From: a virus
Lineage: Duplodnaviria; Caudoviricetes
Reading direction: 5' to 3' (one strand)
DNA: 24,815 bases
IMG/VR virus record: IMGVR_UViG_3300043478_000039
Location: 1-24,815 of that record
Below the pieces are notes generated by a model. The model ran no database searches, had not been told where the DNA came from, and saw nothing but the letters and a program-made list of their open reading frames with translations. Positions 4,083 to 22,798 of this stretch are shown piece by piece; positions within the stretch are counted from its first letter, which is position 1; each line of letters begins with the position of its first letter. Position numbers and translations under genes: made by a program.

Positions 4083-5215
4083 GCCGCCATCCTCCTCTCA
4101 GTCGACTTCTTGTGCTTTTTGCCGCCCATCGATTTGTGCAGCGTGCTGACCTTGTGATCGAGATCCTGCACCGCCTTCATGGTGATGCCGATGGCGTCCT
4201 GAAGGTTGATGGTGCCGTTGTCCTTCTGTCCCGTCGCCTTGGCGTAGTGCGTCGACATGGTGCCGGTGTGGCCCTTGCCGCCGTCGCCGGCGCCGGGCTT
4301 GTAGTCGAACTTCGAGACCGGCATCTTCTTGATCGCCTTGAGGCCATCGCCCTTCTTGACCGGCTTGATGTTCTTCTTCACCGCCGGGTCCGACATGGCG
4401 ACGATGCCAGCGATCGAGCCGAGGCCCGACGCCAGGTCAGCCATGCCGGCGTTCTTGGTCTGCTGTTCCTGCGCCCACCCCTGCATCTGGATGCCGTAGG
4501 TGTTGTTGAGCACGTTGGCGCGGTTGAACTGACCGGCCTGCGCGCCTGAGAAGGCCGGGTTCATATTCTGCGCCGGCATCATGGAGATCTGCTGGTTGTT
4601 GGCACCCAGCCCAACCGCCGACGAGCCGGCCGCCAGCGTCGTGCCGAGGTTGGCGCTGGAGCGGCCGAGCGCGGTGTTGCCGAGGTCGATCGCAGCACCC
4701 CGCATGGCGTCGCCACGCGCCCGCTCCTGCGCCCGCGCGCCGGTCGCAGCGCCGGCGCTGGCCAGTGCCGTGCCCAGCTCGCCGGCCCGCGCCGCATTGG
4801 TGCTGCGGCCGGAATCGGGGCGGATGCCGAGCGACGACGCCTCGCGCTGCGCCGTCTCGCGGGCCTGCGCCGATGCCGTGCTAACGCCGGCGACGGCTTC
4901 CGCCGCGCGGTCCTCCTGCTGCTGCTTGTTGCCGGCGACCTTGGCGTCGGCGAAGAACTTGTCCTCGATGGGCTTGGCCTTGTCGGTCCAGCGGGCGCGG
5001 TCCTCCGTCGCCCACTTCTGCGACTGGTCAGCGATGCCGAGCTGCTGGGTGATGACCTTGTTGGTGAGGGTGTCCAGGCCCTCCTGCCGCTTCGACGACT
5101 TGTCGAAGGCGGTCTTGGCAAACGCCAGCCATTCTTCTCCGGTCTCCGCGCCCTTGAGGGCCGCGGCGCCGATCTGCGGGTCTGGAGAGGGTGCGCTACC
5201 ACCGCTCTTGTTCAT
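4079..5215 (-). CDS. Putative ejection/DNA-transfer protein with C-terminal intramolecular chaperone autoprocessing (peptidase S74-like) domain, 378 aa
   Basis: N-terminal KSGGSAPSPDPQIGAAA and an Ala/Gly/Gln-rich helical body typical of podovirus ejection proteins. C-terminal MSDPAVKKNIKPV...LKAIKKMPVSKFDYK...HTGTM...IGITMKAVQDLDHKV fits the SDxxxKxNI Ser-Lys dyad domain. SD AGGAG. Confidence 0.75.
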   Translation of the reverse strand: MNKSGGSAPSPDPQIGAAALKGAETGEEWLAFAKTAFDKSSKRQEGLDTLTNKVITQQLGIADQSQKWATEDRARWTDKAKPIEDKFFADAKVAGNKQQQEDRAAEAVAGVSTASAQARETAQREASSLGIRPDSGRSTNAARAGELGTALASAGAATGARAQERARGDAMRGAAIDLGNTALGRSSANLGTTLAAGSSAVGLGANNQQISMMPAQNMNPAFSGAQAGQFNRANVLNNTYGIQMQGWAQEQQTKNAGMADLASGLGSIAGIVAMSDPAVKKNIKPVKKGDGLKAIKKMPVSKFDYKPGAGDGGKGHTGTMSTHYAKATGQKDNGTINLQDAIGITMKAVQDLDHKVSTLHKSMGGKKHKKSTERRMAA

Positions 5216-5233
5216 GGCAGGTCTCCTGGAAAC

Positions 5234-5252
5234 CCGGCACGTCCTGCGCTGG
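5234..5252 (-). promoter_or_regulatory. Conserved leader element copy 3: GGA-loop hairpin (CsrA-type site) overlapping an SD/AUG-sequestering hairpin (5213-5241)
   Basis: Core 14-mer at 5237-5250 is identical to copies at 9263-9276 and 22489-22502. mRNA CCAGCGC-AGGAC-GUGCCGG. Alternative stem CGUGCCGGGUUUC-CAG-GAGACCUGCCAUG pairs 12 of 13 positions, including G-U. Confidence 0.75.
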
Positions 5253-5263
5253 TGGTGGGGCCG

Positions 5264-5710
5264 TTATACCGCCAACGGCGGTTCCGGCAAAGGGAGCCAC
5301 AGACACTCCTCGCGCAGCATGCCGTAGAGCAGCAGATCGTCGCCGCCCGGCCCGGCCCGGCGCATGATGCCTTCCAGCTTCCAGCCGCCGAACCGGCGGA
5401 TGAAATGCCGCGACAAAGTGTTCTTCCTGGCGACCAGACAGGTGATGCGTGTGAAGTTGCACTGGATGAACGGGAAGGCCATGGCGCGAACGATGAAGGC
5501 CTTGGTCAGCCACCGCCGCTTGCCGTTGGAGACCACCGTAACGAGGCAGTCGTTGACGCCGAACGTGTCGAACAAAACCGCGCCGCGCAGCTCGCCGTCG
5601 ACCTCCATGGCGATCGCCTTGGCGTCGTCGCGCATGCGATGGCCGTTGCCAAGCAGCGCCTCGGCCCACTTCACGATGCGCTCGTCCTGGTTGTAGACGT
5701 ACTCGATCAC
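5264..5710 (-). CDS. GNAT-family N-acetyltransferase (virion assembly-associated, analogous in position to T7 gp13/P22 gp14), 148 aa
   Basis: RRWLTKAFIVRAMAFPFIQCNFTRITCLVARKNTLSRHFIRRFGGWKLEGIMRRA...DLLLYGMLREECLW is a RimJ/RimL-like GNAT C-terminal signature. Sits just upstream of the ejection genes. Confidence 0.85.
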   Translation of the reverse strand: MIEYVYNQDERIVKWAEALLGNGHRMRDDAKAIAMEVDGELRGAVLFDTFGVNDCLVTVVSNGKRRWLTKAFIVRAMAFPFIQCNFTRITCLVARKNTLSRHFIRRFGGWKLEGIMRRAGPGGDDLLLYGMLREECLWLPLPEPPLAV

Positions 5711-6042
5711 GTATGCGGCCGGTTGAGGTTTTCGTTCGACGTGACGCGGTCGTGCAGCCGGTCGGCGACGATCTTGAGGGCGTTCATGATGGTCGTGACG
5801 TCGCGCAGCAGAGCGTTGTAGTCGGCCATGGTCGGTGCCGCGGTCAGCACCTTGGCGCGCAGGCTGGTGTCGATGTGCAGGATGCCGTTGAGGTCGCGGA
5901 TGCGGACGGCGGCAGCGCTCTTGTCGCGGCGGCGGCCGCCAAACAATACTTCGAGGGCCTCGTCGTACTGCTCGCGCGGCCGCGTCGGGTTGCGGCTGCC
6001 GTAGCCGTTGTATTCGTGATCGCTGGTGTCGCCCCGGCTCAC
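5707..6042 (-). CDS. Hypothetical virion protein, 111 aa (real start inside the 437-aa track ORF)
   Basis: GTG at 6042 overlaps the upstream TGA (GTGA) and has SD AGAGG. Product ...EALEVLFGGRRRDKSAAAVRIRDL...AAPTMADYNALLRDV... The upstream part of the track ORF is an Arg-rich shadow frame. Confidence 0.75.
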   Translation of the reverse strand: MSRGDTSDHEYNGYGSRNPTRPREQYDEALEVLFGGRRRDKSAAAVRIRDLNGILHIDTSLRAKVLTAAPTMADYNALLRDVTTIMNALKIVADRLHDRVTSNENLNRPHT

Positions 6043-7997
6043 GGCTGCCTCTTGAGGTCGTCCATGGTCTTGGCCATGGTGATGCGATCGATGCGCTGGT
6101 CTGTCAACACGTCGATCTCCCAGGTCCGCGCCTTGAAGCCGGACGGCAGCCGTACCGCCTTGTTGGCGACGCCGATCGCCGCGACCAGCTTCTTGTCGGC
6201 CCACACGCCGACGGTCAGCGTTCCGCCCTCGGCCTTCGGCAGCGACGACGGCACCGCCGCGGCGGTCTGCGCGAACGCCCCGATCAGCGTCTGCGCGCCG
6301 CCGCTGCGGCGCGGCATCGGCAGCAGCTTGTCGCTGGCCAGCGGCGCCACGTTGATGAACTGCTCGGCGCGCACCTCGGCCGGCGGCGTGGTGATCGGCG
6401 CCAGGTAGCCGTAGCCGATCGGCGTCGAGGCGAGGTCGCCGTCGAGCGAGATGTACTCGCCAGACGGATACTGATCCTGGATCCAGTCGAGGTTGGTCTC
6501 CTGCCGCTCCTCCTCTTCCGCGTCCTCCGCCTCCTGGTCGAGCGGCAGGAAGTCGTCGAGCGTGTCGATGACGATGGCGCCATAGTTCTCGGAGTACGGC
6601 AGCACGAACTCCTTCGACTTCCAGTACAGCCGCTTGCGCCGCGCGAACGGCGAATCGAAGCGCCAGATCTCGGCCACCCCGACCGGCGCGTAGTAGAGCG
6701 CGCTGTCCTCGACGCTGTAGACGGCGGCGCGCGCGAAGATGTCGCTGCGGATCAGGAAGTTGGGGTTGGCGAGGTCGAGCAGCAGGGCGCCCTTCTCCTC
6801 GACCTCGTCCTGCGGGAAGTAGTCGTAGAAGGCGACATAGCGGCCGTTGATCTGGGCGGCGATCATCTGCTGCGGCCGCAGCTCGAGCCAGCCGTCGCGG
6901 TTGAAGATGGCATTGCTGGCGATGTTGATGGCGCCGGTGGCGGTGGCCATGACGATGCCTTCGTTCGACCCCCACGCGACGGCGTAGCCGAGGTCGACGA
7001 CCGAGCGCTTGTTGATGCACGGCAGCAGCTGCTCGATCTTCTGGCTGGTCATGTTCTCGGGCAGCGTGCCCGACACCATGTACGGATGCGCGTCGGTGGC
7101 CACGATGATGGCCATCGCCATGGCGCCGAGGCCCATCACCTCGTGCTCGAAAGTCAGCGAGTACTTCTCGGGCCAGGCGTGCGGCCGGTACGGCTCGCAG
7201 AAGTACAGCTTCTTCTTCTTGCCGCCGATCGGCACGGCGCCGCCGAACGCCGCCATCATGCCGTTGGGCAGGACGATCAGGCCCTCAAGGTCGTCCGGCG
7301 GTGCGCTCCACGTCACCGAGGGACACGGCTCGGCGATCGCGCTGACGGCGTTGTTGTCGGCGTAGTTGCCGTTCGAAGCGGTGCGCTCGGCGATCAAGTA
7401 GAGGCCGGTGCCGGATTGCCCGCTCTGCGATCGGTAGATGCGCTGCTTGTAGGGGAAGCGGACGCTGGTCGGGGCCGGGTCGGTGGGCGGCGCGGCGAAG
7501 CCGGACAGCGTCACTGTCATGCCGGGCATCCAGTTGACCGGCAGCGAGGCCGGCGCCGGCTCGCTCTCCTCGCCGAGCGCGCTGACGAAGGTGTAGGAAT
7601 AGACGCGCGTGGTGACGTCGCCGGAGCCGCCCGCCGGAGAGCAAACCAGCGCGCCGGTCGGCCGCGCGATGCCGAGGTCGTAGACCTGCGCGCCGATGCG
7701 GATCTTCGGCTTGCCGTCGCCGGTGTAGTAGAGGCGGTCCTCGGCGATCGGGCCGGGCGCGGCGTGGACGACGTTGTCCCAGCCGATCCAGGCGTTGTTG
7801 TACTTGTAGATGGTCTTCCAGTTGATGCTGCCGGTGACCGCCACGTCGAGCGACGGCTGCCGCATCGGCGTCAGGCCGCCGTCGTCGAGGCGGACGTCGC
7901 GGGCGCTCTGGGCGGCGGTCTCGGGCATCAGCCGCGGCAGGATGCGCGGCTGCTCGCCGGTGAAGGCTGTCAGGATGATGGGCGGGGCTGCGGGCAT
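6039..7997 (-). CDS. Tail nozzle / tail tubular protein B-like (P22 gp10-type head-closure) protein, 652 aa
   Basis: True start ATG 7997 (TGATG overlap): MPAAPPIILTAFTGEQPRILPRLMPETAAQSARDVRL. Beta-rich, with RVYSYTFVSALGEESEPAP, LYFCEPYRPHAWP, PCINKRSVVDLG and YWKSKEF motifs of the kind seen in podovirus nozzle proteins. Confidence 0.7.
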   Translation of the reverse strand: MPAAPPIILTAFTGEQPRILPRLMPETAAQSARDVRLDDGGLTPMRQPSLDVAVTGSINWKTIYKYNNAWIGWDNVVHAAPGPIAEDRLYYTGDGKPKIRIGAQVYDLGIARPTGALVCSPAGGSGDVTTRVYSYTFVSALGEESEPAPASLPVNWMPGMTVTLSGFAAPPTDPAPTSVRFPYKQRIYRSQSGQSGTGLYLIAERTASNGNYADNNAVSAIAEPCPSVTWSAPPDDLEGLIVLPNGMMAAFGGAVPIGGKKKKLYFCEPYRPHAWPEKYSLTFEHEVMGLGAMAMAIIVATDAHPYMVSGTLPENMTSQKIEQLLPCINKRSVVDLGYAVAWGSNEGIVMATATGAINIASNAIFNRDGWLELRPQQMIAAQINGRYVAFYDYFPQDEVEEKGALLLDLANPNFLIRSDIFARAAVYSVEDSALYYAPVGVAEIWRFDSPFARRKRLYWKSKEFVLPYSENYGAIVIDTLDDFLPLDQEAEDAEEEERQETNLDWIQDQYPSGEYISLDGDLASTPIGYGYLAPITTPPAEVRAEQFINVAPLASDKLLPMPRRSGGAQTLIGAFAQTAAAVPSSLPKAEGGTLTVGVWADKKLVAAIGVANKAVRLPSGFKARTWEIDVLTDQRIDRITMAKTMDDLKRQP

Positions 7998-9241
7998 CAG
8001 GCGAACTTGATGATCTTGTTGGTGATGGTGGTCGGCTGCAAATTGTTGTGCGGCTTGTCGCCGCCGATCGAATCGGTGGTCCCGGTCAGGTTGTGGATGT
8101 GGTCGCCCTGCCCGGCGGGGGTCAGCGGGTTGTCGGTGTAGAGGACGCCGCTGCCGGCCTGGAACCCGAAACCGCCAGCCGTGCTGGCGATGCGGCCGGA
8201 GATGGTGTGCTGGTGGTCGCCGCCGCCGGTGGCGGTCTTGCCGGCCGCCGACAGGGTGTGGACGTGCGCCGATATCTGCAGGTCGGTCAGCGTGTGCAGC
8301 ATGTGGCCGCCGGAGGTGCCGAGCTTGGTGCCGTCCATGTCGTTGATGGTGTCGGCCGACAGCGCGATGCGGCCGGCGATGCTGCCGCCCATGTCGTCCT
8401 GGCCGGCAGTGACGCGGCCGCGTAAGTCGGGAACGCTGAAGGTGCTGCCGCTCGGCAGGCCCCATAGCGAGCCGGTGCCGCCGAGCGCCTGGAACAGCTT
8501 GTCGTAGGGCGGGGAACGCGACAACGACTGTCCGTAGCAGAGTAGCCAGCCGGCCGGCGCCGCCGGTCCGCCGTAGTCGACGATCGAGCCGATCGGCACG
8601 CCGGTGTCGGTCATGTTGAGCTGATACCAGGACTGCCAGCTGCCGTTGTCGAGGCGCCGCGCCCACGCCGCCGTCGAGTTGATCTGCCTCCACTCCTGGT
8701 ACTGATAGAGCGAGTTGTAGACGTCGGCCCACAGGTAGCCGTACACGCCCGCCACCGGCGCGTTGGTGGTCGTGGTGTTGGCGAGGTAGTGGCCGGTCAC
8801 GGTGACCGAGTTGGCATTGTTGCTCGGCACCGGCTCCGTCACCGAGCGCAGGCGCACCGGCAGCACGGTCTCGGAGACCAGGCCGGTGGTCAGCAGGCCG
8901 GCGTCGGCGAGCAGCGCGGCGATCGCCGCCGCCGTCAGGCGGACGTCGACACGGGCCTGGTTGGCGGTGAACGGCAGCGCCGTCGTGCCCTCCGCCCATG
9001 CGTTCGGCGCCCCACGCGGCATCTGCATGGTCAGCGTCGCGCCAGCCCGGCCGATGCACTTCATGATCTCGCGCTGGCCGGCGGCGTCGACGACGACGAC
9101 AGGGAACCAGTCGTTGGACCCCGCCGCGATGACCGGGAACTTGGCTGCGTCGGCGGCCGCGACGTTGAGCGATGGGTCAGTGCTGGTGATGCTCGACGCG
9201 AGGATCGAGGTGGCGTTGTTGGTCAGCCTGACAGTGCCCAT
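7997..9241 (-). CDS. Tail fibre with N-terminal anchor, knob-like domain, tail collar domain and HxH needle, 414 aa
   Basis: Collar motif VPIGSIVDYGGPAAPAGWLLCYGQSLSR...TFSVPDLRGRV. HVH/HQH/HIH motifs and C-terminal GGDKPHNNLQPTTITNKIIK as in T4 gp12-like/microcystin-dependent family proteins. N-terminal ~110 aa is paralogous to the fibre at 13524-15512. Confidence 0.9.
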   Translation of the reverse strand: MGTVRLTNNATSILASSITSTDPSLNVAAADAAKFPVIAAGSNDWFPVVVVDAAGQREIMKCIGRAGATLTMQMPRGAPNAWAEGTTALPFTANQARVDVRLTAAAIAALLADAGLLTTGLVSETVLPVRLRSVTEPVPSNNANSVTVTGHYLANTTTTNAPVAGVYGYLWADVYNSLYQYQEWRQINSTAAWARRLDNGSWQSWYQLNMTDTGVPIGSIVDYGGPAAPAGWLLCYGQSLSRSPPYDKLFQALGGTGSLWGLPSGSTFSVPDLRGRVTAGQDDMGGSIAGRIALSADTINDMDGTKLGTSGGHMLHTLTDLQISAHVHTLSAAGKTATGGGDHQHTISGRIASTAGGFGFQAGSGVLYTDNPLTPAGQGDHIHNLTGTTDSIGGDKPHNNLQPTTITNKIIKFA

Positions 9242-9260
9242 GCGATAGCCCTCAAAAAGC

Positions 9261-9277
9261 CAGCACGTCCTGCGCTG
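9261..9277 (-). promoter_or_regulatory. Conserved leader element copy 2: GGA-loop hairpin overlapping an SD/AUG-sequestering hairpin (9239-9267)
   Basis: mRNA CAGCGC-AGGAC-GUGCUG (6-bp stem). Alternative stem CGUGC-UGGCUUU-UUG-AGGGCUA-(UC bulge)-GCAUG covers GAGG and AUG. Confidence 0.75.
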
Positions 9278-9286
9278 CCGGCAGTA

Positions 9287-9475
9287 TTATGTCTTGCGGC
9301 TCTTCGTGTCGACGGCGGCCACCTTGTTGCCGGCTTCGAGGAACTCCAGCCAGTCGCCCTGCTGGCAGTTGTCGTCGAGCCACCAGACCTGGTCCTGGTC
9401 GTCGGTCGCCTTGATCAGCATCTCGGGCGGCGGGAAATCGTTGACGACGTACTCGGCGGAAACGAACTTCGGCAT
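9287..9475 (-). CDS. Small protein, probable tail fibre assembly chaperone, 62 aa
   Basis: ATG 9475 overlaps the fibre [17 protein letters not shown]...WWLDDNCQQGDWLEFLEAGNKV resembles the small 'N.DY..YL.W...GN' type proteins that follow fibre genes. Confidence 0.65.
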   Translation of the reverse strand: MPKFVSAEYVVNDFPPPEMLIKATDDQDQVWWLDDNCQQGDWLEFLEAGNKVAAVDTKSRKT

Positions 9476-11460
9476 CACACCCTCGCATCGACAATGTAGG
9501 TCGCAGACATCATGGCATAGCCGGTGCCGGAGCACGTCCGCAGATCGCGCAGCGTCTGGCTGTTGACAAAGCTCAGCGTGCCGCTGGTCGGGAACAGCGT
9601 GCCCGTCCCGCCGCTCGCCGCCAAGGCCGGGGTGGTGCGCGGCGTTATCGGGATGACGTAGACAGCGAGGAAGTTGGCGCTGCTGACGCCGGCGCCGTTC
9701 CACAGCCCATAGAAGGACTGCCAGTAGCGCTGGCACTTTATCATCTCGGTGGCCACGTCAGGCGCCTCCCACTTGGGCGGCACGCCGGTGTTGTCGGGGT
9801 CGAGATAGAGGCCGACGTCCCACAGCTCGAAGGTGTTGCCGACCGTCAGCAGGCCGTTGCTCATGCCCGGCCCGCCGACGAAGTTGCCGGCCTGCCAGCC
9901 GAGCACGCCGACGAAGGTCGCCCCGGTGCAGAACGTGAAAGCGACCTGCAGGGCGTGCGTCTCGTCGCTAGGCCAGGTCCCGGTGACGTCGCCGGGAATG
10001 ACGATCACCTGCTCGGTGTCGACGTTGTTGGCGATAGTGAAGGTGGCGATGAAGGACCGATTGGCGGCGCCGTTGCGGATCGCCACGGCGTAGGTCCCGG
10101 CGGGGCCTTTGATCCCGAACCGCAGGACGACCTGCTTGGCGCCCGCCGCACCCCACCCGAAACCTTCGATGTTCAGACCTTCCAGGCGTTGCATGATCAG
10201 CCAGTACTCACCGGCGGCGATCGAGGTGTCGGCGGTGGTGACCTTGAACTGCAGGCGGTCCTTCGACTTGTTCGGCGTCACCGTCTGCACGCGCTGCGCG
10301 GTCGCCGCGCCGGTGCTGATGTAGGAGTGGTTCCACTGATCGGCGGGGTAGCCGAGGCCAATCAGCGCATCGCCATACTGCTGCGAGATCTGCATGGCGC
10401 CGTTGATGAAGCGGTTGCGCGCGTCGGCAGTCTTGGTGGCGAGGCCGACCCACGGCCCCCACGTCCCGCCGAACACGCCGCGATACCACAGCCCCTTGCT
10501 GATGCTGGTGTTGAGGCTGTAGGGGATCGCCAGCTGGGTGACGTTGGCGCCGTAATTGTGCACCTCGCAGAAGTAATATTCGGAGGCCACCGGCGCGTTG
10601 GCGCAGCCGGGGCCGAGCAGCTCGGGGTGCAGGCCGGGCTTGGTGATGGTGTTCCAGTCGGTGGTGCTGCCGACGACGGTGACCTGGCCCAGCGCCTCCC
10701 ACGCCGCCGATCTGCGGACGTAGGGTTTGCCGTCGTTGACGGCGTCGGTCATGAAGCCGGGCGCCGCCGAGGTCGCCAGCGCGTGCAGGCCGAGGTTGCC
10801 GCGCAGGCCGTGCTGGGCGTCGGTCAGGGTGCCGGTGATGGCGCTGAACGGATGCGTATGGGCGTCCGGCGGGAAGGTCGCCGGCTTGCCGGAGATGCTG
10901 GCCCAGTCGCTGGCGCCGGCCGGTCCGGTGTCGCCGGTGTCGCCCTTGTCGCCCTTGTCGCCCTTCGGCCCCGGCACCGTCGAATCGGCGCCGGCCGGGC
11001 CGGTCGCACCGGGCGCACCGGCGGCGCCTGTCGCGCCGGTGTTGCCGGGCAGGCCCTGCGGTCCCTGCGCTCCGGTCGGCCCCGCCGCGCCGGTGTCGCC
11101 CTTGACGCCCTGCACACCCTGCGCGCCAGCGGATCCGGTCGCGCCGGTGTCGCCCTTGACGCCCTGCGGACCTTGCGCGCCGGTGACGCCCTGCGGCCCT
11201 GCCGCGCCGGTGGTGCCGGTGTCGCCCTTCGCGCCAGCCGGCCCGACCGGGCCGTCCGGCCCGGCCGGTCCGGTCGCCCCCATCGGCCCGGTCGGCCCGG
11301 TCGGGCCGGCTGGCCCGGTTGGACCAGGCGGGCCGTTGACGGCAGCCGGTGGGACGCCCTTGACCAGCCAGCGCGGCGGCACGAAGACATAGGTCTGGCC
11401 ACCACCCGGAGGGGTGAATTCCTGCCCGCTGACCGGGCTGGCCGGGAAATCGTAGCTCAT
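9475..11460 (-). CDS. Collagen-like tail/head fibre with knob-like and C-terminal receptor-binding domains, 661 aa
   Basis: 39+7 Gly-X-Y triplets, HTH motif, foldon-like [16 protein letters not shown], pyocin-knob-like DWNTITKPG...VTQLAIPY...[14 protein letters not shown], and [13 protein letters not shown]...YPADQW...EMIKCQRYW beta-sandwich. Confidence 0.88.
10909..11334 (-). repeat. Collagen Gly-X-Y repeat tract within the fibre gene
   Basis: 39 uninterrupted GXY triplets, an STVP interruption, then 7 more. Visible as 9-nt periodic sequence with a larger near-duplication (gcgccggtgtcgcccttgacgccctgc twice). Confidence 0.95.
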
Positions 11461-11461
11461 G

Positions 11462-12121: not shown

Positions 12122-12125
12122 CGCG

Positions 12126-12437: not shown

Positions 12438-12438
12438 G

Positions 12439-15512: not shown

Positions 15513-15799
15513 CAGCAGTCCCGCACGCGCATCTCGAAGCGGGCCTCCTTGGTCCGCCCCGACAGCGTCGTGGCGTAGACGCGGATCTCGGATTCCTCGC
15601 CGTCGACGCCGCCCGACACCCAGACGCGGACGACCTGGTCGGTCCACTCGACCTGGTCGACGACGAAGCCGACGGTGGCGTCGACGACCGTCGCGCTTGC
15701 CGATCCGATGGTGTCGCTGTCGGTCAGCCAACGGCCGTAGTCGACGTCATAGTCGAGCCGGTCGACCGGGGCCTTCTCCATGGCTGCGAGGCAACTCAT
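15512..15799 (-). CDS. Fibre-tail adaptor-like small protein, 95 aa
   Basis: ATGA overlap start at 15799. KAPVDRLDYDVDYGRWL...VRVWVSGGVDGEES...TTLSGRTKE matches the widespread 'KDP...LDY..DW..WL...VWLSGG..G...T..GR' phage family. Confidence 0.8.
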   Translation of the reverse strand: MSCLAAMEKAPVDRLDYDVDYGRWLTDSDTIGSASATVVDATVGFVVDQVEWTDQVVRVWVSGGVDGEESEIRVYATTLSGRTKEARFEMRVRDC

Positions 15800-16503: not shown

Positions 16504-16504
16504 G

Positions 16505-16921
16505 TCATATGACCGACTCGATCAGCTTGCCGATCCTGATCGCTGCCTCGTCGGTCGGCGAGAAAGTGCGCGGCGTGGTCAGCGGGCCGTAGATCAGCAT
16601 GTTGCCGGCGACCTGCGCGTCCCACACCGCGGCGTGGGAGATGGTGATGTCGCCCGGCCCGTCCATCGGGCCGTAATTCATCTGCTTGAGGTTGTTCGTG
16701 GTCTTGGCGGCAGCCGCGCCAAAGCCGGTGTCGACCGCACCGCCGACGGCGGGGTCCTGCCGCAGGTAGGACGGCCATGCGGCGAGCGAGATCTCGTTGG
16801 CGCCGCCGACGCCGGGGTCGGCGATGTGCAGCGAGACGAAGACGCGGGCGGGTGCCGCGAAGGCGACGCCGCGCAGCAAAAGGTCGAGCATCTTGTTACC
16901 GGCATAGGTCGAAGCTGGCAT
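16505..16921 (-). CDS. Conserved phage tail-associated protein, 138 aa (real start inside the 380-aa track ORF)
   Basis: TGATG start at 16921. MPASTYAGNKMLDLLLRGVAFAAPARVFVSLHIADPG...ANEIS...YLRQ...TISHAAVWDAQVAGNMLIYGPL is a recognisable phage structural family pattern. Confidence 0.8.
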   Translation of the reverse strand: MPASTYAGNKMLDLLLRGVAFAAPARVFVSLHIADPGVGGANEISLAAWPSYLRQDPAVGGAVDTGFGAAAAKTTNNLKQMNYGPMDGPGDITISHAAVWDAQVAGNMLIYGPLTTPRTFSPTDEAAIRIGKLIESVI

Positions 16922-17541
16922 CAGAAGTAATCTCCCTTCGTGCGCAGCCGCGCGCCTTGCTGGCCCTTGACGGACTGGGTCTTGGCCGAGGCGACCTTGG
17001 ATTCGAAGATCGACTGCAGCCCGGCACCGAGCGTCGGGTTGGAATTCTCGCCCGGCAGCAGCAGCGCGCGTGCCGCGGCACCTTGGCCGATCAGGCCGCG
17101 ATGCAGGTCGAGCAGCCAGTCCGGCATGGTGGTGGCGGTCAGCGAAGGCTGCAGGATCAGCCCCAGCTCCAGCGTTCCCTCGGCGAACGGATAGACGGTG
17201 ACGGTGTTCGGGTTGAGCTGGGTGACGTACTGGGCGGCACCGCTGCTGACTTCGCTGTTCTGCCAGTCGCAATTGAAGCCGTCGAGCCAGCGCTTGGTGA
17301 CCGGCGTCAGGTTGACGCCGTTGAACTTGGCCTGTTCGATCTCGACGATGTCGGCGTCCTGGATGGTGCAGATGCCCTCGTAGGTCGGGTCGTCGATCTG
17401 GATGCTGTCGCGCTCGCGCCACAGCCGGGCCTTGAAGCACAGGTCGCGCGCCGCGTCGCGGATGACGCGGTGCGCCAGCGGCTCGTTGAGATTGGGTGCG
17501 TAGACCAGCACCTCGGTGAGGAAGTCGTCGATGTCGCGCAT
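16921..17541 (-). CDS. Head-tail adaptor-like virion protein, about 206 aa
   Basis: MRDIDDFLTEVLVYAPNLNEPLAHRVIRDAARDLCFKARLWRE...IGQGAAARALLLPG pattern. Start is ATG 17541 or GTG 17544, overlapping the upstream TGA. Confidence 0.7.
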   Translation of the reverse strand: MRDIDDFLTEVLVYAPNLNEPLAHRVIRDAARDLCFKARLWRERDSIQIDDPTYEGICTIQDADIVEIEQAKFNGVNLTPVTKRWLDGFNCDWQNSEVSSGAAQYVTQLNPNTVTVYPFAEGTLELGLILQPSLTATTMPDWLLDLHRGLIGQGAAARALLLPGENSNPTLGAGLQSIFESKVASAKTQSVKGQQGARLRTKGDYF

Positions 17542-18257
17542 CACGTCGAGGCCCTCGCATTCGGGCTGTGCGCCTTCTCGACCTGGATCTTGAGGCCGAT
17601 CGCGGTGGCGAACTGCTGGTAGTGGACGGCCGAGCGTCCGGCGGCACCGTCGGTGTCGTCCTTCATCTGGCAGCGATACAGCACGTAGTCGAGCAGCGGC
17701 ACCGAGTATGGCTCCGGCAGCCCGACGTCGACGGCGTAGGAGGCGAGGTCGGCGGGGTCGGCGTCGACGGCAATGGCGACCGGCGGCGGCAGGTGGCCGA
17801 TCTCGGCCTCGACCATGCCGGTGCCGTCGTTGCCGGGGTAGACATAGTACTCCAGGGGAACCATGTCGTTGTAGCAGTAGTTGCGCACCTCCTTGCGGAA
17901 CTGCACGCGGCTGCGGTCGTGCCAGTCGGGGTCGGTGACGTCGAGCTGGCCGCGCGCGGTGTGCTTGACCATGCGGCCAGCCTTGCGCGGCTCGTTGGCG
18001 TCGAGGATGTTGCGGTTGACCGACAGCAGGCTGAGCGGCTTTACCGGGCTGTCGAGGATGGCGTCGGGCAGCTTCTGCAGCGTCCCGACCTGCAGCTTGA
18101 GGACGATCGTCATCGAGGCAGCCGACGGCTTGGCCAGGCAGATGGCGCGGACGCCCTCGTTAAGCCAGTCGCACTTCTCCGGTAGCGGCCAACGGACGTG
18201 ATCCACGTCGTTGAGCAGAACCGCCGCGCGCGAGAGTATTTCCTGGCCTGTCGGCAT
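17541..18257 (-). CDS. Head-tail adaptor protein (DUF6682-like), 238 aa
   Basis: EILSRAAVLLNDVDHVRWPLPEKCDWLNEGVRAICLAKPSA...YYVYPG...LLDYVLYRCQMKD...HYQQFATAIG is the characteristic pattern. Confidence 0.8.
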   Translation of the reverse strand: MPTGQEILSRAAVLLNDVDHVRWPLPEKCDWLNEGVRAICLAKPSAASMTIVLKLQVGTLQKLPDAILDSPVKPLSLLSVNRNILDANEPRKAGRMVKHTARGQLDVTDPDWHDRSRVQFRKEVRNYCYNDMVPLEYYVYPGNDGTGMVEAEIGHLPPPVAIAVDADPADLASYAVDVGLPEPYSVPLLDYVLYRCQMKDDTDGAAGRSAVHYQQFATAIGLKIQVEKAHSPNARAST

Positions 18258-18260
18258 CCA

Positions 18261-18971
18261 TCATCCCGCCAAGGCTTTCGCCTGCCCGACCCAGTTGTCA
18301 CGCTCGACGCGGCCGTTGAGACCCAGCTCGTCGTCGATGGCCTTGGCCTTCTTGGCCGACCACTTGGCGATCTGGCGGGCGTCGTCGATGCCCATGGCTT
18401 CGAGCTTGGCAGCGGTGCCCTTGCCGATGCCGTTGATCTCGGTCAGCGGGATCTTGCCAACGTCTTCGCCGTCGTCGCCGGCGTCATAGCCCTCCGTCTC
18501 GTCAGGATCCTCGTCGGGCAGGTCTTCCTCGACCACCACCGGCTCGGTGAAGGTGAAGTCGAGCGGGTCGGTCACCGCCAGGTCGTAGCGGCGCACGTAG
18601 ACCGGCAGCGTGACGGCGCCCCATCCGAGCGACGGCTTGACGATGGTGGTGATCTCCTCGGTCGACACGAAGACGATCGGCTCGGGCTGGCCGGCGAAGA
18701 AGATCACCGAATCCGGGCCGAACCCGGCGCCGAGGCAGCGCAGCACGAAATCCTCGCCGCCCAGCTCGGCGGTCGCCGGGTCGAGCGACGTCAGCGTCAG
18801 CTCGTCGGGGTCCTTCAGCACGACGCGGTAGTGGACGACCGACGTCAGCAGCTGGACGTGGCGCTCGTCGTGCACCGTCGCGACGGCGCGTCCGAACTCG
18901 TCGGGGATGAAACTGTAGGTCGTGCCACCGACCTCGGTGACAGTAGGCCCGTAGGTGCATTGAACCAGCAT
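18261..18971 (-). CDS. Virion-associated protein with IPT/TIG Ig-like domain and C-terminal helix-hairpin-helix domain, 236 aa
   Basis: LTLTSLDPATAELGGEDFVLRCLGAGFGPDSVIFFAG...FVSTEEITTIV (IPT-like), an acidic linker, then LTEINGIGKGTAAKLEAMGI...QIAKWS...IDDELGLNGRVERDNWVGQAKALA (COG3743-type HhH). Confidence 0.8.
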   Translation of the reverse strand: MLVQCTYGPTVTEVGGTTYSFIPDEFGRAVATVHDERHVQLLTSVVHYRVVLKDPDELTLTSLDPATAELGGEDFVLRCLGAGFGPDSVIFFAGQPEPIVFVSTEEITTIVKPSLGWGAVTLPVYVRRYDLAVTDPLDFTFTEPVVVEEDLPDEDPDETEGYDAGDDGEDVGKIPLTEINGIGKGTAAKLEAMGIDDARQIAKWSAKKAKAIDDELGLNGRVERDNWVGQAKALAG

Positions 18972-18972
18972 G

Positions 18973-19113
18973 TCAGCTCTTCCTCTTCCCCTTGCGCGCG
19001 ACGCCCTTTGGCGCGGCCGGCAGCGCAGCCGTCTTGCCGAACTTCATAGTCCCGCCGGTGTCCGAGCGGAAGGTCTTGCCCTTGGGCGGGAACGCCGCTG
19101 GTTTCTTGGCCAT
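18973..19113 (-). CDS. Small basic protein, 46 aa (not in the ORF track)
   Basis: ATG directly after the upstream TAG, preceded by GGAGTGAG. Product MAKKPAAFPPKGKTFRSDTGGTMKFGKTAALPAAPKGVARKGKRKS. Fills the gap exactly, ending 1 nt before the next ATG. Confidence 0.75.
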   Translation of the reverse strand: MAKKPAAFPPKGKTFRSDTGGTMKFGKTAALPAAPKGVARKGKRKS

Positions 19114-20193
19114 CTAACGTCTCACTCCAACGAATTTCTTGACCACCGCCTTGGCGCTGGTCGGGCGGGCGCGGCTGGGCAGCGGCGTGCTGGTGCCTGG
19201 GCGCACGATGCCGGCGACACCCGCCGGCGGCGCTGCCGAGCGGCGGTCGGCGGCAGCCGACGCGACCTTGGCCTTGCTCATCGCACCGGCGATCCGATCC
19301 TTGGCGCTGAAGGTGTTGGGTGCCGCGGCAGTGGCGCCACCGGCCTTGACCACCGTGCTCGGCAATGGCTTCAGCGGCGCGTTCGGTATAGGTTTCATCA
19401 GCGACGGCTGCCGAGTGGCTGGCGCCGGCCGCGGCACGTTGCCGAACACCTTGGTCTTGGGCAGCGTGTAGCGGCCGCCGACCGGCGGCTTCACGGCGGC
19501 GACGGCGACACCGCCGCGCTCGCCGGCCTTGTCGGCCTTCGCCGAGCTGGTCCTGGCCTGCGCCATGCGCTTGTCGAGTTTCTGCTTGGCCGTGGCCGGC
19601 GCTCCCGCCGTGACGACGGCCGGGCGCGGCTTGAAGCTGGAGCGCGTCTCGGACCCGGCAGCCAGCTTGTCCTGGCCGGACCGCATCGTCTTGAACTGGC
19701 CGCTGGGCGGGTTCGCCTTGGCGGCCTCGGCGGCGCGATTGTCGCGGCGTGGCGACGGCGTTGGCTTCGGTGCGGTCTTGGGCAGTGCGCTGACGCTGGC
19801 CTTGCCGGGCGTCGGGCGCTTGGCCGGGGTGGCCGTGGTTTTGTTAGGTAGCGCGGATGCGCTGGCCTTGCCGACTGGCCGCTTGCCCGGCGTCGCCTTG
19901 GTCTTGTCAGGCAGCGCCGATGCAGCGGCGCGCGCCTGCAGCGTCGGGGCGCGCGACGGCGCGTTCGGCTCCGGGCGCTTGCCGACGGCGGCGACGGCCT
20001 TCTTGCCGCCCTTCGACTTCGACGCGCCGGCCATTTTGGTGCTGTAGCTCTTGCCGCCGAACGAGAAGGTCTTGGTCTTGGGGTTCTTGGACGCGACAGC
20101 GAACGCCTTGTCGAACGCCTTGCCGCCCTTCGAGCGGCCTTTCGGCTTCTTCGAGGCAGCTAGCTGTGCCTTGGTTCCCACGAACAGACCCAC
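19114..20193 (-). CDS. Lys/Ala/Pro-rich, highly basic low-complexity protein, 359 aa
   Basis: Coding-like codon use (AAG, GCC). Very few acidic residues. Internal SALPxKTxATPxKRPxxGKA repeats. GTG start is uncertain. Confidence 0.75.
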   Translation of the reverse strand: MGLFVGTKAQLAASKKPKGRSKGGKAFDKAFAVASKNPKTKTFSFGGKSYSTKMAGASKSKGGKKAVAAVGKRPEPNAPSRAPTLQARAAASALPDKTKATPGKRPVGKASASALPNKTTATPAKRPTPGKASVSALPKTAPKPTPSPRRDNRAAEAAKANPPSGQFKTMRSGQDKLAAGSETRSSFKPRPAVVTAGAPATAKQKLDKRMAQARTSSAKADKAGERGGVAVAAVKPPVGGRYTLPKTKVFGNVPRPAPATRQPSLMKPIPNAPLKPLPSTVVKAGGATAAAPNTFSAKDRIAGAMSKAKVASAAADRRSAAPPAGVAGIVRPGTSTPLPSRARPTSAKAVVKKFVGVRR

Positions 20194-20205
20194 GCGCCTG
20201 GCCCC

Positions 20206-20775
20206 CTACTTGAAGAAGCCCTTGAGGCCGCTGAAATCATGGCGGGCGCCGGCGGCGGCCCGCTGCTTCTTGCTCGGGTTCGGCTTGGTGCCGGGGTCGT
20301 AGCGGACCTGCTGCGGCACGTCGCCGCCGCGCCAGCTCTGGACGCCGCGGACGGCTGCCTGCGGCTTGACGGTGGCCTGCGGCCGCGGCGTCGGCGTGAC
20401 GGTCGTGGTCTGGCGCTTGGTGACCTTCTTGCCGCCGCCGCCGGCTGGCGGAGCGACAGTCGCTGGCGACTTGATGCGGGCGTCGCGCTCGCGGATGGTC
20501 TTGACCCACGGCAGGTTCGGGTTGACGCCGCTCTCCTCGCTGCGCTTGAACTTGCCGCCGGTCGCCTTGACCGCAGCCTCTTCCTGCCCACGCGCCGACT
20601 TGACCCATGGGTTATTGGCGTCGATCTCGGACCTGTGCACCTGCTTCGGGACCGGGGTGGACTTCACCTTTGGCGGTGGCGGCGGCGCAGGCGCGTCCGG
20701 GTCGGTGCGGCCAAGGCCCGTGCCGAGAAAGCCACCACCACCGAAAAAGCCTGGGTCTTCCTTGTTCTTGGCCAT
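20206..20775 (-). CDS. Basic Pro/Lys-rich hypothetical protein, 189 aa
   Basis: Strong SD AGAGGAG before ATG. Duplicated NxPWVK motif. Confidence 0.8.
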   Translation of the reverse strand: MAKNKEDPGFFGGGGFLGTGLGRTDPDAPAPPPPPKVKSTPVPKQVHRSEIDANNPWVKSARGQEEAAVKATGGKFKRSEESGVNPNLPWVKTIRERDARIKSPATVAPPAGGGGKKVTKRQTTTVTPTPRPQATVKPQAAVRGVQSWRGGDVPQQVRYDPGTKPNPSKKQRAAAGARHDFSGLKGFFK

Positions 20776-20781
20776 GCCCGT

Positions 20782-20847
20782 TCTCCTCTTCAGACTTTAC
20801 CGGCGGACCGTCGGCCTGGAGAGGAGATCAGGCCTACGGGCCGCCGG
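20782..20847 (-). promoter_or_regulatory. Long hairpin (20800-20847) with anti-SD loop, able to form a pseudoknot with the SD at 20782-20789
   Basis: mRNA CCGGCGGCCCGUAGGCCUG-AUCUCCUCUC-CAGGCCGACGGUCCGCCGG pairs 17 of 19 positions. Loop UCUCCUCU is the exact complement of the downstream AGAGGAGA. Confidence 0.65.
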
Positions 20848-20883
20848 ACGATACTTGAACCCCTTGCCCGGATTTGCGCAGGC

Positions 20884-21354
20884 TCAAGTAGTTGCGACCA
20901 TCAGCGTCAGCGCGATCGACGCCGAAACGGCGACAGTGCGAGCCGTGAAGATCAAGCCGATGCCGCGCTCCTTGCTGTCCGGCGCCAGGCGGAATGCGCT
21001 GAGCTGGGTGGCTGCGAGGCGGGTGATCGCGCCGGGAGCGGCGGTAGCACCGGCCACGGCGACGAACAACTCCTGGTTGGTGATGACGCGCGACCCATCG
21101 GCGGTGTCGCCGGCATTGCCGGTCAGCACGCCGATGTTGAACGTGGCAGTGGCGCCGAGCGGGCCGGGCACGTCGAGGTAGCCGTCGACGATGCGGCAGT
21201 AGGGCGGCAGCGACGCGAACTCGAAGATGTCGGCGAGCACGATCGGGTTCGACGCCGGGATGGAGAACTCGAAACGGTTGACGACGACATCGCCGGCGCT
21301 GCCGGGATAGGCGACGGGGGTGTTCTTGAAGGCCCCGCCCAGAATGGTGGTCAT
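20884..21354 (-). CDS. Probable capsid decoration/cement protein, 156 aa
   Basis: Immediately follows the MCP with SD AGGAGAG. Beta-rich LADIFEFASLPPYCRIVDGYL...TFNIGVLTG...ERGIGL pattern typical of genes following this MCP type. Confidence 0.65.
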   Translation of the reverse strand: MTTILGGAFKNTPVAYPGSAGDVVVNRFEFSIPASNPIVLADIFEFASLPPYCRIVDGYLDVPGPLGATATFNIGVLTGNAGDTADGSRVITNQELFVAVAGATAAPGAITRLAATQLSAFRLAPDSKERGIGLIFTARTVAVSASIALTLMVATT

Positions 21355-21366
21355 GAAGATCTCTCC

Positions 21367-22464
21367 TTACGGGTTCGGGTCCTTGGCCGCGGTGTCGATC
21401 GACAGGACGCCAAAGTCCTTGCCGTTGAACCGGGATTTCTTGATGCCCATGATGACGCCGGCCGCGACCTTCGGCTCGTTGCCGTGATCCGACATCTCCT
21501 CGGTCCAGGTGAACCGCAGCCCGCCTGTCGAGCCATAGGCGACGACACCCGCCTGCCGGCCCATGAACAGGGCACGCGCCGCGAGGATGTTGTTGCCGGA
21601 ACCGTAGTCGCTGAAGCGGATGACGTTCTCGTGGCTGTGCAGGACGACGTTGTCGATCATGCCCAACCCGCCCTTGAAGATCGGGTTGTTGCGGCCTTCG
21701 GCCTGCGCCGCGGCCTTCTGGATGTCGAGCCAGCCGCCGGTGTCGGAGACGCGAAGGTCGTACTCCTGGAACGGCGACATCAAGAGCACGTAATGCTGCT
21801 CGCCATCGATGTTGATGGCGATCATGTTGGCGGTCGTCGGGTCCGACGCCCGCATCATCGTCGCCTTGACGGCGGCGCGCTCGATGACGACGCGGGTCAT
21901 CACGTCGCCGACCACCAGGCCGGCCTTGCCGCCGGTGCCGGGATAGATGATGTGGCCGGTGTCCGGCGCGAGGATGGCGTTGTTGGCGAAGCCCGCCCAG
22001 GTGACGTCTTCGATGTAGTCCTGGTTGACGCCGCGCGAACCGGACAAATAGATGAAATTGATCTGGTCGATGTACTGCGACCAGTAATCCGACAGGCGGT
22101 CGCGGGCGATCGAGCGGATGTTGTGCAGCGTGCGCTTGCGGCTCATCTTACCGCCTGCAGAGACGCCGTGCCGCATCTGGTCGATGTAGACGGTGTCGGT
22201 GAAGAACCGCAGGTTCTCTTCCTTGCCCTCGAGCCGGTTGTCGCCGACGGTGGGCTTGTTGCGCAGCTGCACCGAGAGGTCGAAGCTGATCTGGTCACCA
22301 GCATCCGATTCGAGATCGGTGAGGCGCTGGATGACGCTGTTGTCGCTCTCCGACACGAACTTCCTGTCGAAGTAGCCCTTCGTCAGGATGTCGAGGAATA
22401 GCTGACCAGACCAGCGCTTGACGGCCTTGGGATCGCCGAGAGGGATATTGGTGGGACCAGCCAT
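21367..22464 (-). CDS. Major capsid protein, N4-gp56 family (DUF4043-like), 365 aa
   Basis: SD GGAGG before ATG 22464. DPKAVKRWSGQL...IQRLTDLESDAGDQISFDLSVQL...LEGKEENLRF...IDQMRHGVSAGGKMSRKRT...NNPIFKGGLGMIDNVVLH...KKSRFNGKDFGVLSIDTAA. Confidence 0.95.
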   Translation of the reverse strand: MAGPTNIPLGDPKAVKRWSGQLFLDILTKGYFDRKFVSESDNSVIQRLTDLESDAGDQISFDLSVQLRNKPTVGDNRLEGKEENLRFFTDTVYIDQMRHGVSAGGKMSRKRTLHNIRSIARDRLSDYWSQYIDQINFIYLSGSRGVNQDYIEDVTWAGFANNAILAPDTGHIIYPGTGGKAGLVVGDVMTRVVIERAAVKATMMRASDPTTANMIAINIDGEQHYVLLMSPFQEYDLRVSDTGGWLDIQKAAAQAEGRNNPIFKGGLGMIDNVVLHSHENVIRFSDYGSGNNILAARALFMGRQAGVVAYGSTGGLRFTWTEEMSDHGNEPKVAAGVIMGIKKSRFNGKDFGVLSIDTAAKDPNP

Positions 22465-22487
22465 GACGTGCAACCTCCAGGGGGGTC

Positions 22488-22502
22488 AGCACGTCCTGCG
22501 CT
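22488..22502 (-). promoter_or_regulatory. Conserved leader element copy 1: GGA-loop hairpin overlapping an SD-sequestering hairpin (22465-22495) of the MCP gene
   Basis: mRNA AGCGC-AGGAC-GUGCU. Its GACGUGC is perfectly complementary to GCACGUC immediately before the AUG, enclosing GACC/GGUU pairing over the SD GGAGG. Confidence 0.78.
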
Positions 22503-22510
22503 TTTGCGAA

Positions 22511-22539
22511 GAAATACTTCGAAACGGTGGATTGAGCAA
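22511..22539 (-). promoter_or_regulatory. Possible sigma70-like promoter for the capsid operon (TTGCTC-N17-TATTTC)
   Basis: 17-nt spacing in an AT-richer gap. The predicted start would fall in the A-run just 5' of the GGA hairpin. Match to consensus is only partial. Confidence 0.35.
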
Positions 22540-22559
22540 GCTGGTGCAGCCAGACCGCG

Positions 22560-22584
22560 GAAATTCGCCAAAAATGCGAATTTC
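22560..22584. repeat. Perfect 9-bp inverted repeat (GAAATTCGC-N7-GCGAATTTC) at the end of the CsrA-like gene; hairpin or operator
   Basis: Seen directly in the sequence. No U-tract follows on the minus strand, so it is not a canonical intrinsic terminator. Confidence 0.6.
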
Positions 22585-22798
22585 AGCCGACGCGCTGCAC
22601 CATTTCGAGAACGCGGCGCGGCGGCCCGACGACGCCGTAGACATAGCGCGGCGGCACCAGGCCGTCGACGAGGCAGCGGATCGGCAGCTGGCTGAAGAAC
22701 GACAGCTTGGTCGCCGAGCCGCTCTTGTACTCGACGCGCACCACCGCGACGTCGCCGATCTCGACGGCCTCGCCGGGCCGCATGGTTTTTGAAAACAT
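22583..22798 (-). CDS. CsrA/RsmA-like small RNA-binding protein (divergent), 71 aa
   Basis: MFSKTMRPGEAVEIGDVAVVRVEYKSG aligns without gaps to E. coli CsrA [27 protein letters not shown] (recalled sequence), identical at M1,T5,R7,G9,E10,I14,G15,D16,V20,V22,G27. The canonical APxxVxVxREE C-terminal motif is not conserved. Confidence 0.7.
   Translation of the reverse strand: MFSKTMRPGEAVEIGDVAVVRVEYKSGSATKLSFFSQLPIRCLVDGLVPPRYVYGVVGPPRRVLEMVQRVG

Follow-up and report, generated by a model that had tools for sequence, protein, structure and literature searches.

Proteins of the CsrA/RsmA/RsmE family (PF02599; RsmE-hcnA structure 2jpp) bind hairpins in 5′ leaders that display a C-G closing pair and adenines in the loop. 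Their consensus loop site is A(N)GGAX, and CsrA usually represses by combining an upstream site with a site at the Shine-Dalgarno sequence (SD), as reported in PMC4005645. Arg44 is reported to be essential for RNA binding in the RsmA family, and in RsmN the equivalent residue, Arg62, makes contact with N7 of the first G of the GGA (PMC3791407). Activation is also on record. In the ymdA leader of Escherichia coli, upstream binding of CsrA is described to destabilize a hairpin that sequesters the SD, which turns translation on (PMC7492729). Meanwhile, the small protein Com of phage Mu is described to bind a hairpin loop by the mom initiation region, to melt an inhibitory structure and to activate, the GA of the loop being important (PMC6483171). 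Phages also carry csrA genes of their own. Those of Lessievirus (JC1, CSP3) and RsmM of Pseudomonas aeruginosa phages are presented as morons of unknown function or are proposed to act in host manipulation or anti-CRISPR, and the available parts of these papers name no cis target (PMC9144972, PMC10269572, PMC7366521, PMC8450108). The same group of papers reports that one peptide of the carbon storage regulator protein was recovered from JC1 virions. Here, we describe a proposed target, a 14-nt box, AGCGCAGGACGTGC, that occurs in three late-gene leaders of IMG/VR virus record IMGVR_UViG_3300043478_000039 (Caudoviricetes), together with a 71-aa CsrA-like gene located directly upstream of the first of these leaders. 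The whole contig of 24,815 nt (24.8 kb), hereafter the window, was analyzed.

This locus resembles the described systems in some respects and departs from them in others. The window protein is like CsrA, RsmA and RsmE in its fold and possibly, according to a model, in forming a strand-swapped dimer, and the box is like their sites in being a leader hairpin with the same closing pair and loop adenines. However, Arg44 is mostly absent, with D5, L6 and K25-S26-G27 found instead, and the window protein has no Pfam match. The box loop reads A-N-G-A-(N) with a free second base, its stem is conserved in sequence, and the phage protein is predicted to activate, with the late genes of the phage itself as targets. 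The ymdA leader, as far as it is described in the available text, is read by host CsrA through two sites on one host mRNA, whereas here there is one hairpin per leader, 1-5 late leaders per genome and a predicted phage-encoded reader. Com, by the same measure, is a zinc finger with one target, in contrast to the CsrA fold and the predicted regulon of capsid, tail, ejection, DarB-like and lysis genes described here. As in ymdA and Com, the predicted binding site competes with an SD-occluding structure, according to purely computational evidence (predicted folds, covariation and energy gain). The genes named carbon storage regulator in JC1, DC1 and CSP3 are homologs of the window gene and share its position upstream of the capsid gene.

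We consider it likely that a phage-specific CsrA subfamily activates late-gene translation through the box. The system is a real and widespread variant of known parts, and it is undescribed: no description of this leader was found in Rfam or in the main texts of the open literature searched. Rfam 15 returned eight weak covariance-model matches in the window, far below gathering scores and none of them at the boxes.

The box and its predicted competing folds

All three exact copies of the box lie on the − (coding) strand of the window. Allowing up to two mismatches adds a single match, on the + strand at 10800 (chance mean 0.92). The scaffold Glu/Pro repeat and the collagen repeat aside, no other 14-mer has three or more copies on the − strand. 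The copies and their distances to the following start codons (Table 1) are those given by an earlier reading of the sequence alone (the sequence-only reading), and its remark on gene spacing was equally accurate. Genes within a block are coupled, with stops and starts overlapping or near-adjacent, and only four of the 26 gene junctions have gaps longer than 12 nt (118, 108, 45 and 48 nt). The boxes occupy three of these, namely the gaps of 118, 45 and 48 nt. Under a relaxed hairpin rule, the element precedes 3 of the 26 gene starts of the window, exactly the three box-led genes.

In isolation, the box is predicted to fold as a hairpin of 4-5 bp at -3.3 kcal/mol. In the minimum-energy fold of each window leader, its 3′ arm is paired with the SD flank or the start codon instead. 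Holding the small hairpin brings a predicted gain of 4.0-6.2 kcal/mol in the capsid leader, and of the amounts listed in Table 1 in the two other leaders, depending on the 5′ end. As a caveat, the three leaders are no more stable overall than dinucleotide shuffles (z of -1.27, 0.13 and -1.07).

The element is conserved far beyond the window. Our sample of relatives comprised 80 capsid loci from IMG/VR and, in addition, annotated phages, which together yielded 89 leaders with enough flank, 67 of them distinct. A GCGC-A(N)GA(N)-GUGC hairpin is carried by 57 of these 67 protein-selected capsid leaders, which span 41-93% capsid identity. The ten leaders without the box belong to L030, L054, L050, K250, phiA008, AP1, Pan3, Y7, phi191/933W and Epa33; that of L030 has the same stem as the box with the loop AUCA. 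The main loops of the 57 leaders are AAGA (16), AUGA (13), AAGAC (11), AGGAC (6) and AUGAC (5), followed by AGGAU, AAGAA and AGGA with two each. Hence, the sequence-only reading erred in taking GGA for the conserved feature of the loop, as it is found in only 10 of the 57 capsid-leader loops. Adding the leaders from a pattern scan that was blind to the protein gives a larger set of 111 distinct leaders, and here GGA is present in 48 and absent from 63. The canonical A(N)GGAX site describes the three copies of the window, but not the element across relatives. Within one genome, USP_18, sites with AAGA, AGGA and AUGA loops stand alongside a single CsrA-like match. Among 19 loci in bacterial genomes, where capsid identity goes down to 38%, inspection by eye revealed the hairpin in 18, with AUAC, AUAA, UGGAU and AUGAAC as additional loops.

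Capsid genes are not the only ones led by the element. Further boxes stand before tail, acetyltransferase, ejection, DarB-like and endolysin genes, amounting to 1-5 sites per genome. From the end of the box to the start codon there are 21-44 nt in all 111 leaders, a distance that places the box roughly outside the 30S footprint.

Covariation suggests that the box acts as RNA with two competing folds, as the sequence-only reading had proposed. For the small hairpin, the fifth pair is informative, since no search pattern fixes it: it is paired in 82 of the 111 distinct leaders, versus a mean of 48 when shuffled and 20-29 when slid. The pairs are AU (28), CG (26), UG (13), GC (12), UA (2) and GU (1). 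In L012/L021 the whole stem is swapped to GGCU/GGCC with the loop AUGAC retained, and in GP4 the outer stem pair is swapped to A-U. Most capsid leaders display a G-U wobble in the core (46 of 57), and nine display G-C. The first A of the loop and the sequence of the 5′ arm are conserved more than pairing alone needs. The occluding hairpin covaries as well. The protein-blind scan used the box plus GGAGCAC as its pattern and covered 120 loci of an estimated 160, versus 48 for the reversed box. A Watson-Crick match between the last loop base and the first base that the pattern leaves free was seen in 34 of 56 structural-gene leaders versus 8 of 33 background matches (p 0.001), and among five-base loops in 12 of 17 (permutation p 0.001); these counts refer to distinct leaders and are not corrected for kinship.

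Because the scan pattern builds in GGAGCAC, we ran the energy test again with leaders that had been selected by protein alone. Across these 55 leaders, the predicted cost to open positions -16 to +3 has a median of 12.7 kcal/mol in the free leader and 6.5 kcal/mol with the hairpin held. The median predicted gain is 6.3 kcal/mol and reaches at least 1.4 in 54 of 55, while spacer-shuffled controls have a median of 0.18. Free leaders are predicted to be closed, with a median of 13.0 kcal/mol versus 7.8 with shuffled spacers. Closed leaders whose opening cost falls when the hairpin is held make activation the likelier sign, in agreement with the sequence-only reading.

Several variants of the leader were observed. 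Tandem boxes occur in L044, L053, L180 and L217, with a second copy 20-40 nt upstream of the leader box, an arrangement that might serve a dimer with its two RNA sites. In the F116-like phages Epa33 (L085:13976-13993) and USP_18 (L359:504-521), a second, conserved box match lies 5-6 nt before the start of differing genes, with the SD in its loop; from its position, it is a candidate repressive site. A perfect box also covers the integrase start codon of PBC5 (L002:961-972) and its close relative G046 (L358:285-296), but not that of Atu_ph08. We did not count it as a site, as Met-Ser-Ala codons supply most of the match and chance is a likely explanation; late repression of the integrase through it is possible. 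Meanwhile, the annotated capsid start of Atu_ph08 (4371, within L355:4368-4462) overlaps the box, and by analogy with PBC5 the true start is probably some 30 nt downstream. Moraxella and Psychrobacter prophages (L344-L346, L348) have lost the loop G (AUAA, AUAC). Together with the canonical CsrA found in both searched Psychrobacter genomes, this hints at escape from host cross-talk. Other elements occur in relatives that lack the CsrA-like gene. The long leaders of phiA008 (L146:2253-2455) and AP1 (L147:2214-2416) share one of the form TCTTGACC-GCCT-AA-GTC-like, and L054-L056 (G013), which also lack the box, display a 7-bp hairpin with the loop ACAC at the same place of the capsid leader.

The CsrA-like protein and its association with the box

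The product of the gene upstream of the capsid leader has a CsrA beta fold, as indicated by profile comparison and structural modeling. The 71-aa window protein has no Pfam match, so it does not reach the curated cut-off of PF02599, but its reading frame matches phrog_8397, a CsrA-like regulator, with an E-value of 5e-5. Among 34 family members, 19 match PF02599 at E ≤ 1, the best at 3.3e-7. The alignment profile of these 34 members matches RsmE (2jpp) position for position over residues 1-48 (E 4e-11). A Foldseek search with the protein model returned CsrA, RsmA or RsmE chains as all of its 13 top matches; the best had an rmsd of 1.2 Å over 44 columns and a probability of 1.00, with an E-value of only 0.04. 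When the single sequence was compared with solved structures, TAL effectors were the only matches, and these were rejected as an artefact in which weak repeat matches of less than 8 bits each add up. Model confidence (pLDDT) is about 92 over residues 1-30 and 40-68 past residue 40, and the tails, where CsrA has its C-terminal helix after beta 5, are not conserved.

A CsrA-like strand-swapped homodimer is predicted. Its model scored 0.50 versus 0.05 for the best of three controls, although this may reflect likeness to solved CsrA dimers; 20 of 30 solved pairs came up to the mark used, as did 1 of 23 single chains. Across runs, at least 95% of contacts agree and pLDDT is at least 75, with residues 2-6 packed against residues 30-34 of the other chain.

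The sequence-only reading was right to call the protein CsrA-like, but it is not a canonical CsrA. Position 44 of the profile is Val in the window protein, or Cys if a two-residue deletion is assumed, and Arg44 occurs in 4 of the 34 members in the alignment and in 46 of the top 150 representatives. The RNA-contact positions of the family differ from those of canonical CsrA, being dominated by D5, L6 and K25, the last within a K25-S26-G27 motif (KSG type). Hence, despite its CsrA fold, the window protein falls outside strict CsrA family membership by the Pfam cut-off, by Arg44 and by the GGA site. The absence of Arg44 fits the free second base of the loop, because its equivalent in RsmN contacts the first G of GGA. 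By raw counts, which include one spurious row, Arg44 accompanies 21 of 41 GGA pairs versus 3 of 58 others. We do not claim co-evolution from these counts, which have the right direction and lose significance after control for kinship; they are a lead only.

The family is large. Its profile matches 3,256 representatives at E ≤ 0.001, probably including canonical CsrA, and 251 at E ≤ 1e-10. F116, LKA5 and H66 carry a copy identical to the CsrA-like gene of Epa33 (the F116 protein has 68 aa), which makes the idea directly testable. In addition to its KSG-type gene, Epa33 carries a second CsrA (W05:C1:15563-15703, locus L158), located outside the late region. Its MLILTRR and HR motifs are canonical, it has a long extension at the C-terminus, and it is probably of the RsmM type (PMC7366521). 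G045 has two KSG-type genes (L037:8240-8437 and L037:12836-12988), each directly followed by a box.

The gene and the box occur together across relatives, as the sequence-only reading had anticipated. The CsrA-like gene is present at 71 of the 80 capsid loci. Among the nine without it, four have less than 250 nt upstream, four also lack the box and the last is a fragment of 7 kb. The gene is missing from eight relatives with complete or near-complete records (933W, phi191, K250, phiA008, AP1, Pan3, Y7 and G013), and these have no capsid-gene box and 0-1 pattern match per record. The protein-blind scan gave the same picture, with the gene found in the fetched stretch for 70 of 81 structural-gene leaders versus 1 of 39 other matches, and this single match itself resembles a capsid gene whose start is unusual. 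As for the 11 structural-gene leaders without the gene, five have at most 300 nt upstream and two lie on contigs where another locus shows it; the rest are L269 (a 638-nt locus), L175 (before the same 192-197-aa gene family) and the fragments L182 and L240. In the 19 bacterial-genome loci, the gene lies within 4 kb in 17 and at 8 kb in one, and the remaining locus has neither gene nor box. The locus at 8 kb, L331, had at first appeared to be an exception, with a box and no gene, and is none.

Gene and box are also absent together and relocated together. Both are absent from lineages nested in the clade (L054, L050 and L337) and from Y7, and in the F116-like Epa33 and USP_18 both have moved from the capsid gene to the tail region. 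In PBC5 and Atu_ph08 the gene lies some 28-30 kb away, with boxes on both strands before divergent capsid and endolysin genes. This distance, together with boxes facing both ways, implies action in trans. Host genomes were searched for 16 of the 19 bacterial loci, and only 2 of 16, several of which are incomplete assemblies from metagenomes, have a canonical CsrA over the Pfam cut-off; hence, host CsrA cannot be the general reader. No canonical CsrA was found in the genome of L347, a record titled Pantoea sp. 18069 whose prophage resembles those of Comamonas and whose label may be wrong.

Proposed late-gene activation and rival explanations

We propose that, in the unbound leader, pairing of the 3′ arm of the box with the SD flank would keep translation off. 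The CsrA-fold protein would bind the loop and stem of the box in the form of the small A(N)GA(N)-loop hairpin. Held in this form, the hairpin would pull the 3′ arm away, weaken the SD hairpin and admit ribosomes, and stop/start coupling would then carry translation through the capsid, tail and ejection blocks. Capsid synthesis would follow that of portal and scaffold, because the CsrA-like gene, which starts at the stop of the scaffold-like gene, closes the portal-scaffold run. In a prophage or early in infection, leaders with host-type promoters would not be translated, and leaky late promoters would be harmless in a prophage.

Several observations weigh against this interpretation. In the window, the collar-fiber leader gains only 1.3-2.3 kcal/mol, an SD hairpin of 6-8 bp persists when the small hairpin is held, and the residual cost of opening is then 9.4 kcal/mol for the capsid leader and 4.0 and 6.3 kcal/mol for the others. 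Across relatives, 4 of the 111 leaders gain less than 0.5 kcal/mol, two sites of POI1126 (outside the set of 111) are only 19 and 20 nt from the start, and some box matches overlap the SD or start codon. On the side of co-occurrence, the gene and the first box are neighbors, which makes part of their co-inheritance automatic. The box-less capsid rows need only two changes on a quick capsid tree (the kind of tree used throughout), hence few independent events. In the fragments L182 and L240, which have a box, the upstream stretches of 5.7 and 2.2 kb contain no gene, and Mwe-JY07 has boxes with only a weak CsrA-like frame at the usual position (E 3.4 locally, otherwise no match). Several of the 16 host genomes are incomplete metagenome-assembled genomes. 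Finally, the link between Arg44 and GGA lacks significance when only independent pairs are compared (3-6 of them, median p 0.5-1), and the clade of the window itself has GGA loops without Arg44.

The same protein could read the box and repress, bridging the upstream hairpin and the GGA of the SD so as to cap or delay virion protein output. This is unlikely in our view, although repression through an upstream site together with one at the SD is how CsrA is reported to work as a rule (PMC4005645), two of the SDs in the window contain GGA, and matches include the SD of Epa33 and USP_18 genes in their loop or cover the integrase ATG (PBC5 and G046). Leaders already predicted closed when free leave little to repress, the covarying pairing of the arm with the SD flank is not needed by a plain repressor site, and the box is kept at its distance from the start in every leader of the set. 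It is quite improbable that the leader is a protein-independent kinetic switch, in which the small hairpin, as the earlier one to form during transcription, gives ribosomes brief access before the leader refolds, while the gene rides along or acts on host mRNAs. The 5′ hairpin is indeed transcribed first, the gene and the first box are neighbors, few changes are needed on the tree, and phage RsmA proteins have been proposed to act on the host (PMC8450108, PMC7366521). However, the conservation of the first loop A and the 5′ arm exceeds the needs of pairing, gene and box are jointly absent (L054, L050, L337 and Y7) and jointly relocated in F116-like phages, and the second CsrA of Epa33, with its canonical R44 region, is a better candidate for host effects. 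Host CsrA or RsmA as the reader is the least probable of the explanations considered. The AGGAC loop of the window fits the reported A(N)GGAX consensus (PMC4005645) and GGA occurs in 48 of 111 leaders, but the other 63 lack it, 14 of 16 host genomes have no CsrA over the cut-off, and the nearest named relatives of the window infect Alphaproteobacteria.

Promoters bear on two further explanations. TTG-N16-18-TATAAT-like sites were found in 33 of the 111 leaders, compared to 4.2 ± 2.0 in shuffles, and 20 of them lie 12-14 nt upstream of the box, so that the box would often sit near +5, close to the 5′ end of the mRNA. This enrichment keeps alive an action at the level of transcription, with the box as a DNA operator or pause site past late promoters or as a nut-like RNA site for antitermination; its near-dyad and its place at the head of long coupled blocks point the same way. 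We nonetheless rate such an action as a quite remote prospect. The G-U wobble, the centre of four or five bases and the compensatory stem changes fit RNA over a DNA dyad, the SD-flank pairing covaries, 78 of 111 leaders have no such promoter, other promoter sites are 25-38 nt from the box, and some boxes fall inside the end of the CsrA-like gene. The sequence-only reading had asked for a promoter role of the motif region to be excluded: RNA covariation speaks against a DNA site, but sigma-70-like promoters do often lie just upstream. Antitermination is possible as an added effect of the box. Protection of late mRNAs from decay by protein on the 5′ hairpin, with translation affected only secondarily, would suit a box near +5 and has a reported precedent in activation by CsrA through blocked decay (PMC7492729). 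We find it very improbable, as it leaves unexplained the covarying SD-flank pairing and the boxes inside polycistronic messages.

Collectively, the interpretation given by the sequence-only reading is partly supported, and late-gene activation by the phage CsrA-like protein stays our preferred explanation. A broader version, for which we see about as much in favor as against, is that podoviruses of the Bcep22-, GP4-, PBC5-, PEp14- and F116-like groups made CsrA a private late-gene activator with an A-N-G-A code. Transcripts from host-type promoters would stay locked until the protein, acting in trans, releases the genes for capsid, tail, ejection and lysis and the DarB-like gene, and the protein may repress where a box overlaps the SD or the integrase start. 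These findings give phage CsrA-like genes, annotated for years as morons or host manipulators, a proposed cis target, sign and place in the infection cycle, and make the KSG-type subfamily of phages separable from the canonical RsmM type. They also point to control of late genes at translation across a large group of phages, some of whose cultured members are in use or under consideration for therapy and biocontrol. If true, the late switch would be run at translation rather than via a sigma factor or antiterminator, and the 7-kDa protein with its 13-nt site would be an orthogonal protein-RNA ON switch, compact enough for synthetic use.

The late region of the window

By gene content, the window is derived from a Bcep22/PBC5/GP4-like podovirus. 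It covers a podovirus late region with genes on the − strand and displays the P22-like portal, PF13252 capsid, acetyltransferase and DarB-like giant gene of this group in the same order. The remaining genes of the set are the scaffold-like gene, the CsrA-like gene, adaptor and head genes, fibers, a phrog_511 gene and two ejection-type proteins; the DarB-like gene is represented by its start. The capsid protein shares 68% identity with Sinorhizobium phage PBC5 and 63% with Bcep22 and GP4, and the nearest named relatives are alphaproteobacterial phages.

Table 1 Coordinates of genes, boxes, predicted hairpins and promoter-like sites in the window
Feature	Position	Strand	Remarks
Scaffold-like gene	22799..23746	−	phrog_8246; function inferred from position; directly upstream of CsrA-like gene
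CsrA-fold protein gene, 71 aa	22583..22798	−	KSG-type, no Arg44; start codon abuts scaffold-like stop; predicted box reader
Possible sigma-70-type promoter before box 1	22511..22539	−	TTGCTC-17-TATTTC; by eye, below scan threshold
Box 1	22489..22502	−	hairpin GCGC-AGGAC-GUGC; 24 nt before major capsid ATG
Predicted SD-occluding hairpin, capsid leader	22465..22495	−	GACGUGC pairs GCACGUC (22471-22465); SD GGAGG 22478-22474
Major capsid protein gene	21367..22464	−	PF13252, phrog_334; predicted target of box 1
Sigma-70-like promoter match before box 2	9283..9312	−	TCGACA-18-AATACT; only match of the scan, about chance expectation
Box 2	9263..9276	−	21 nt before collar-domain fiber gene
Predicted SD/start-occluding hairpin, leader 2	9240..9266	−	weakest of the three; predicted gain 1.3-2.3 kcal/mol
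Tail collar-domain fiber gene	7997..9241	−	PF07484; predicted target of box 2; coupled to phrog_511 (nozzle-like) block
Sigma-70-like promoter match before box 3	5263..5290	−	TTGCCG-16-TATAAC
Box 3	5237..5250	−	21 nt before first ejection-type virion protein gene
Predicted SD/start-occluding hairpin, leader 3	5214..5240	−	predicted gain 3.5-4.5 kcal/mol
Virion protein gene, first ejection-type	4079..5215	−	phrog_8003; heads coupled block; predicted target of box 3
DarB-like giant gene	start 2788, runs off contig	−	closes the coupled block headed by phrog_8003 gene

The fourth long gap (20776-20883, − strand) has no box. It displays a terminator-like hairpin after the gene next to the capsid gene, then a long hairpin in which a pyrimidine tract pairs with the SD of the next gene. 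This gap heads a block of Ala/Lys/Pro-rich reading frames (20775-18973) that are matched mainly in the closest relative, L003. Among the relatives, probable lysis-region boxes were observed in G003, G005 and G007.

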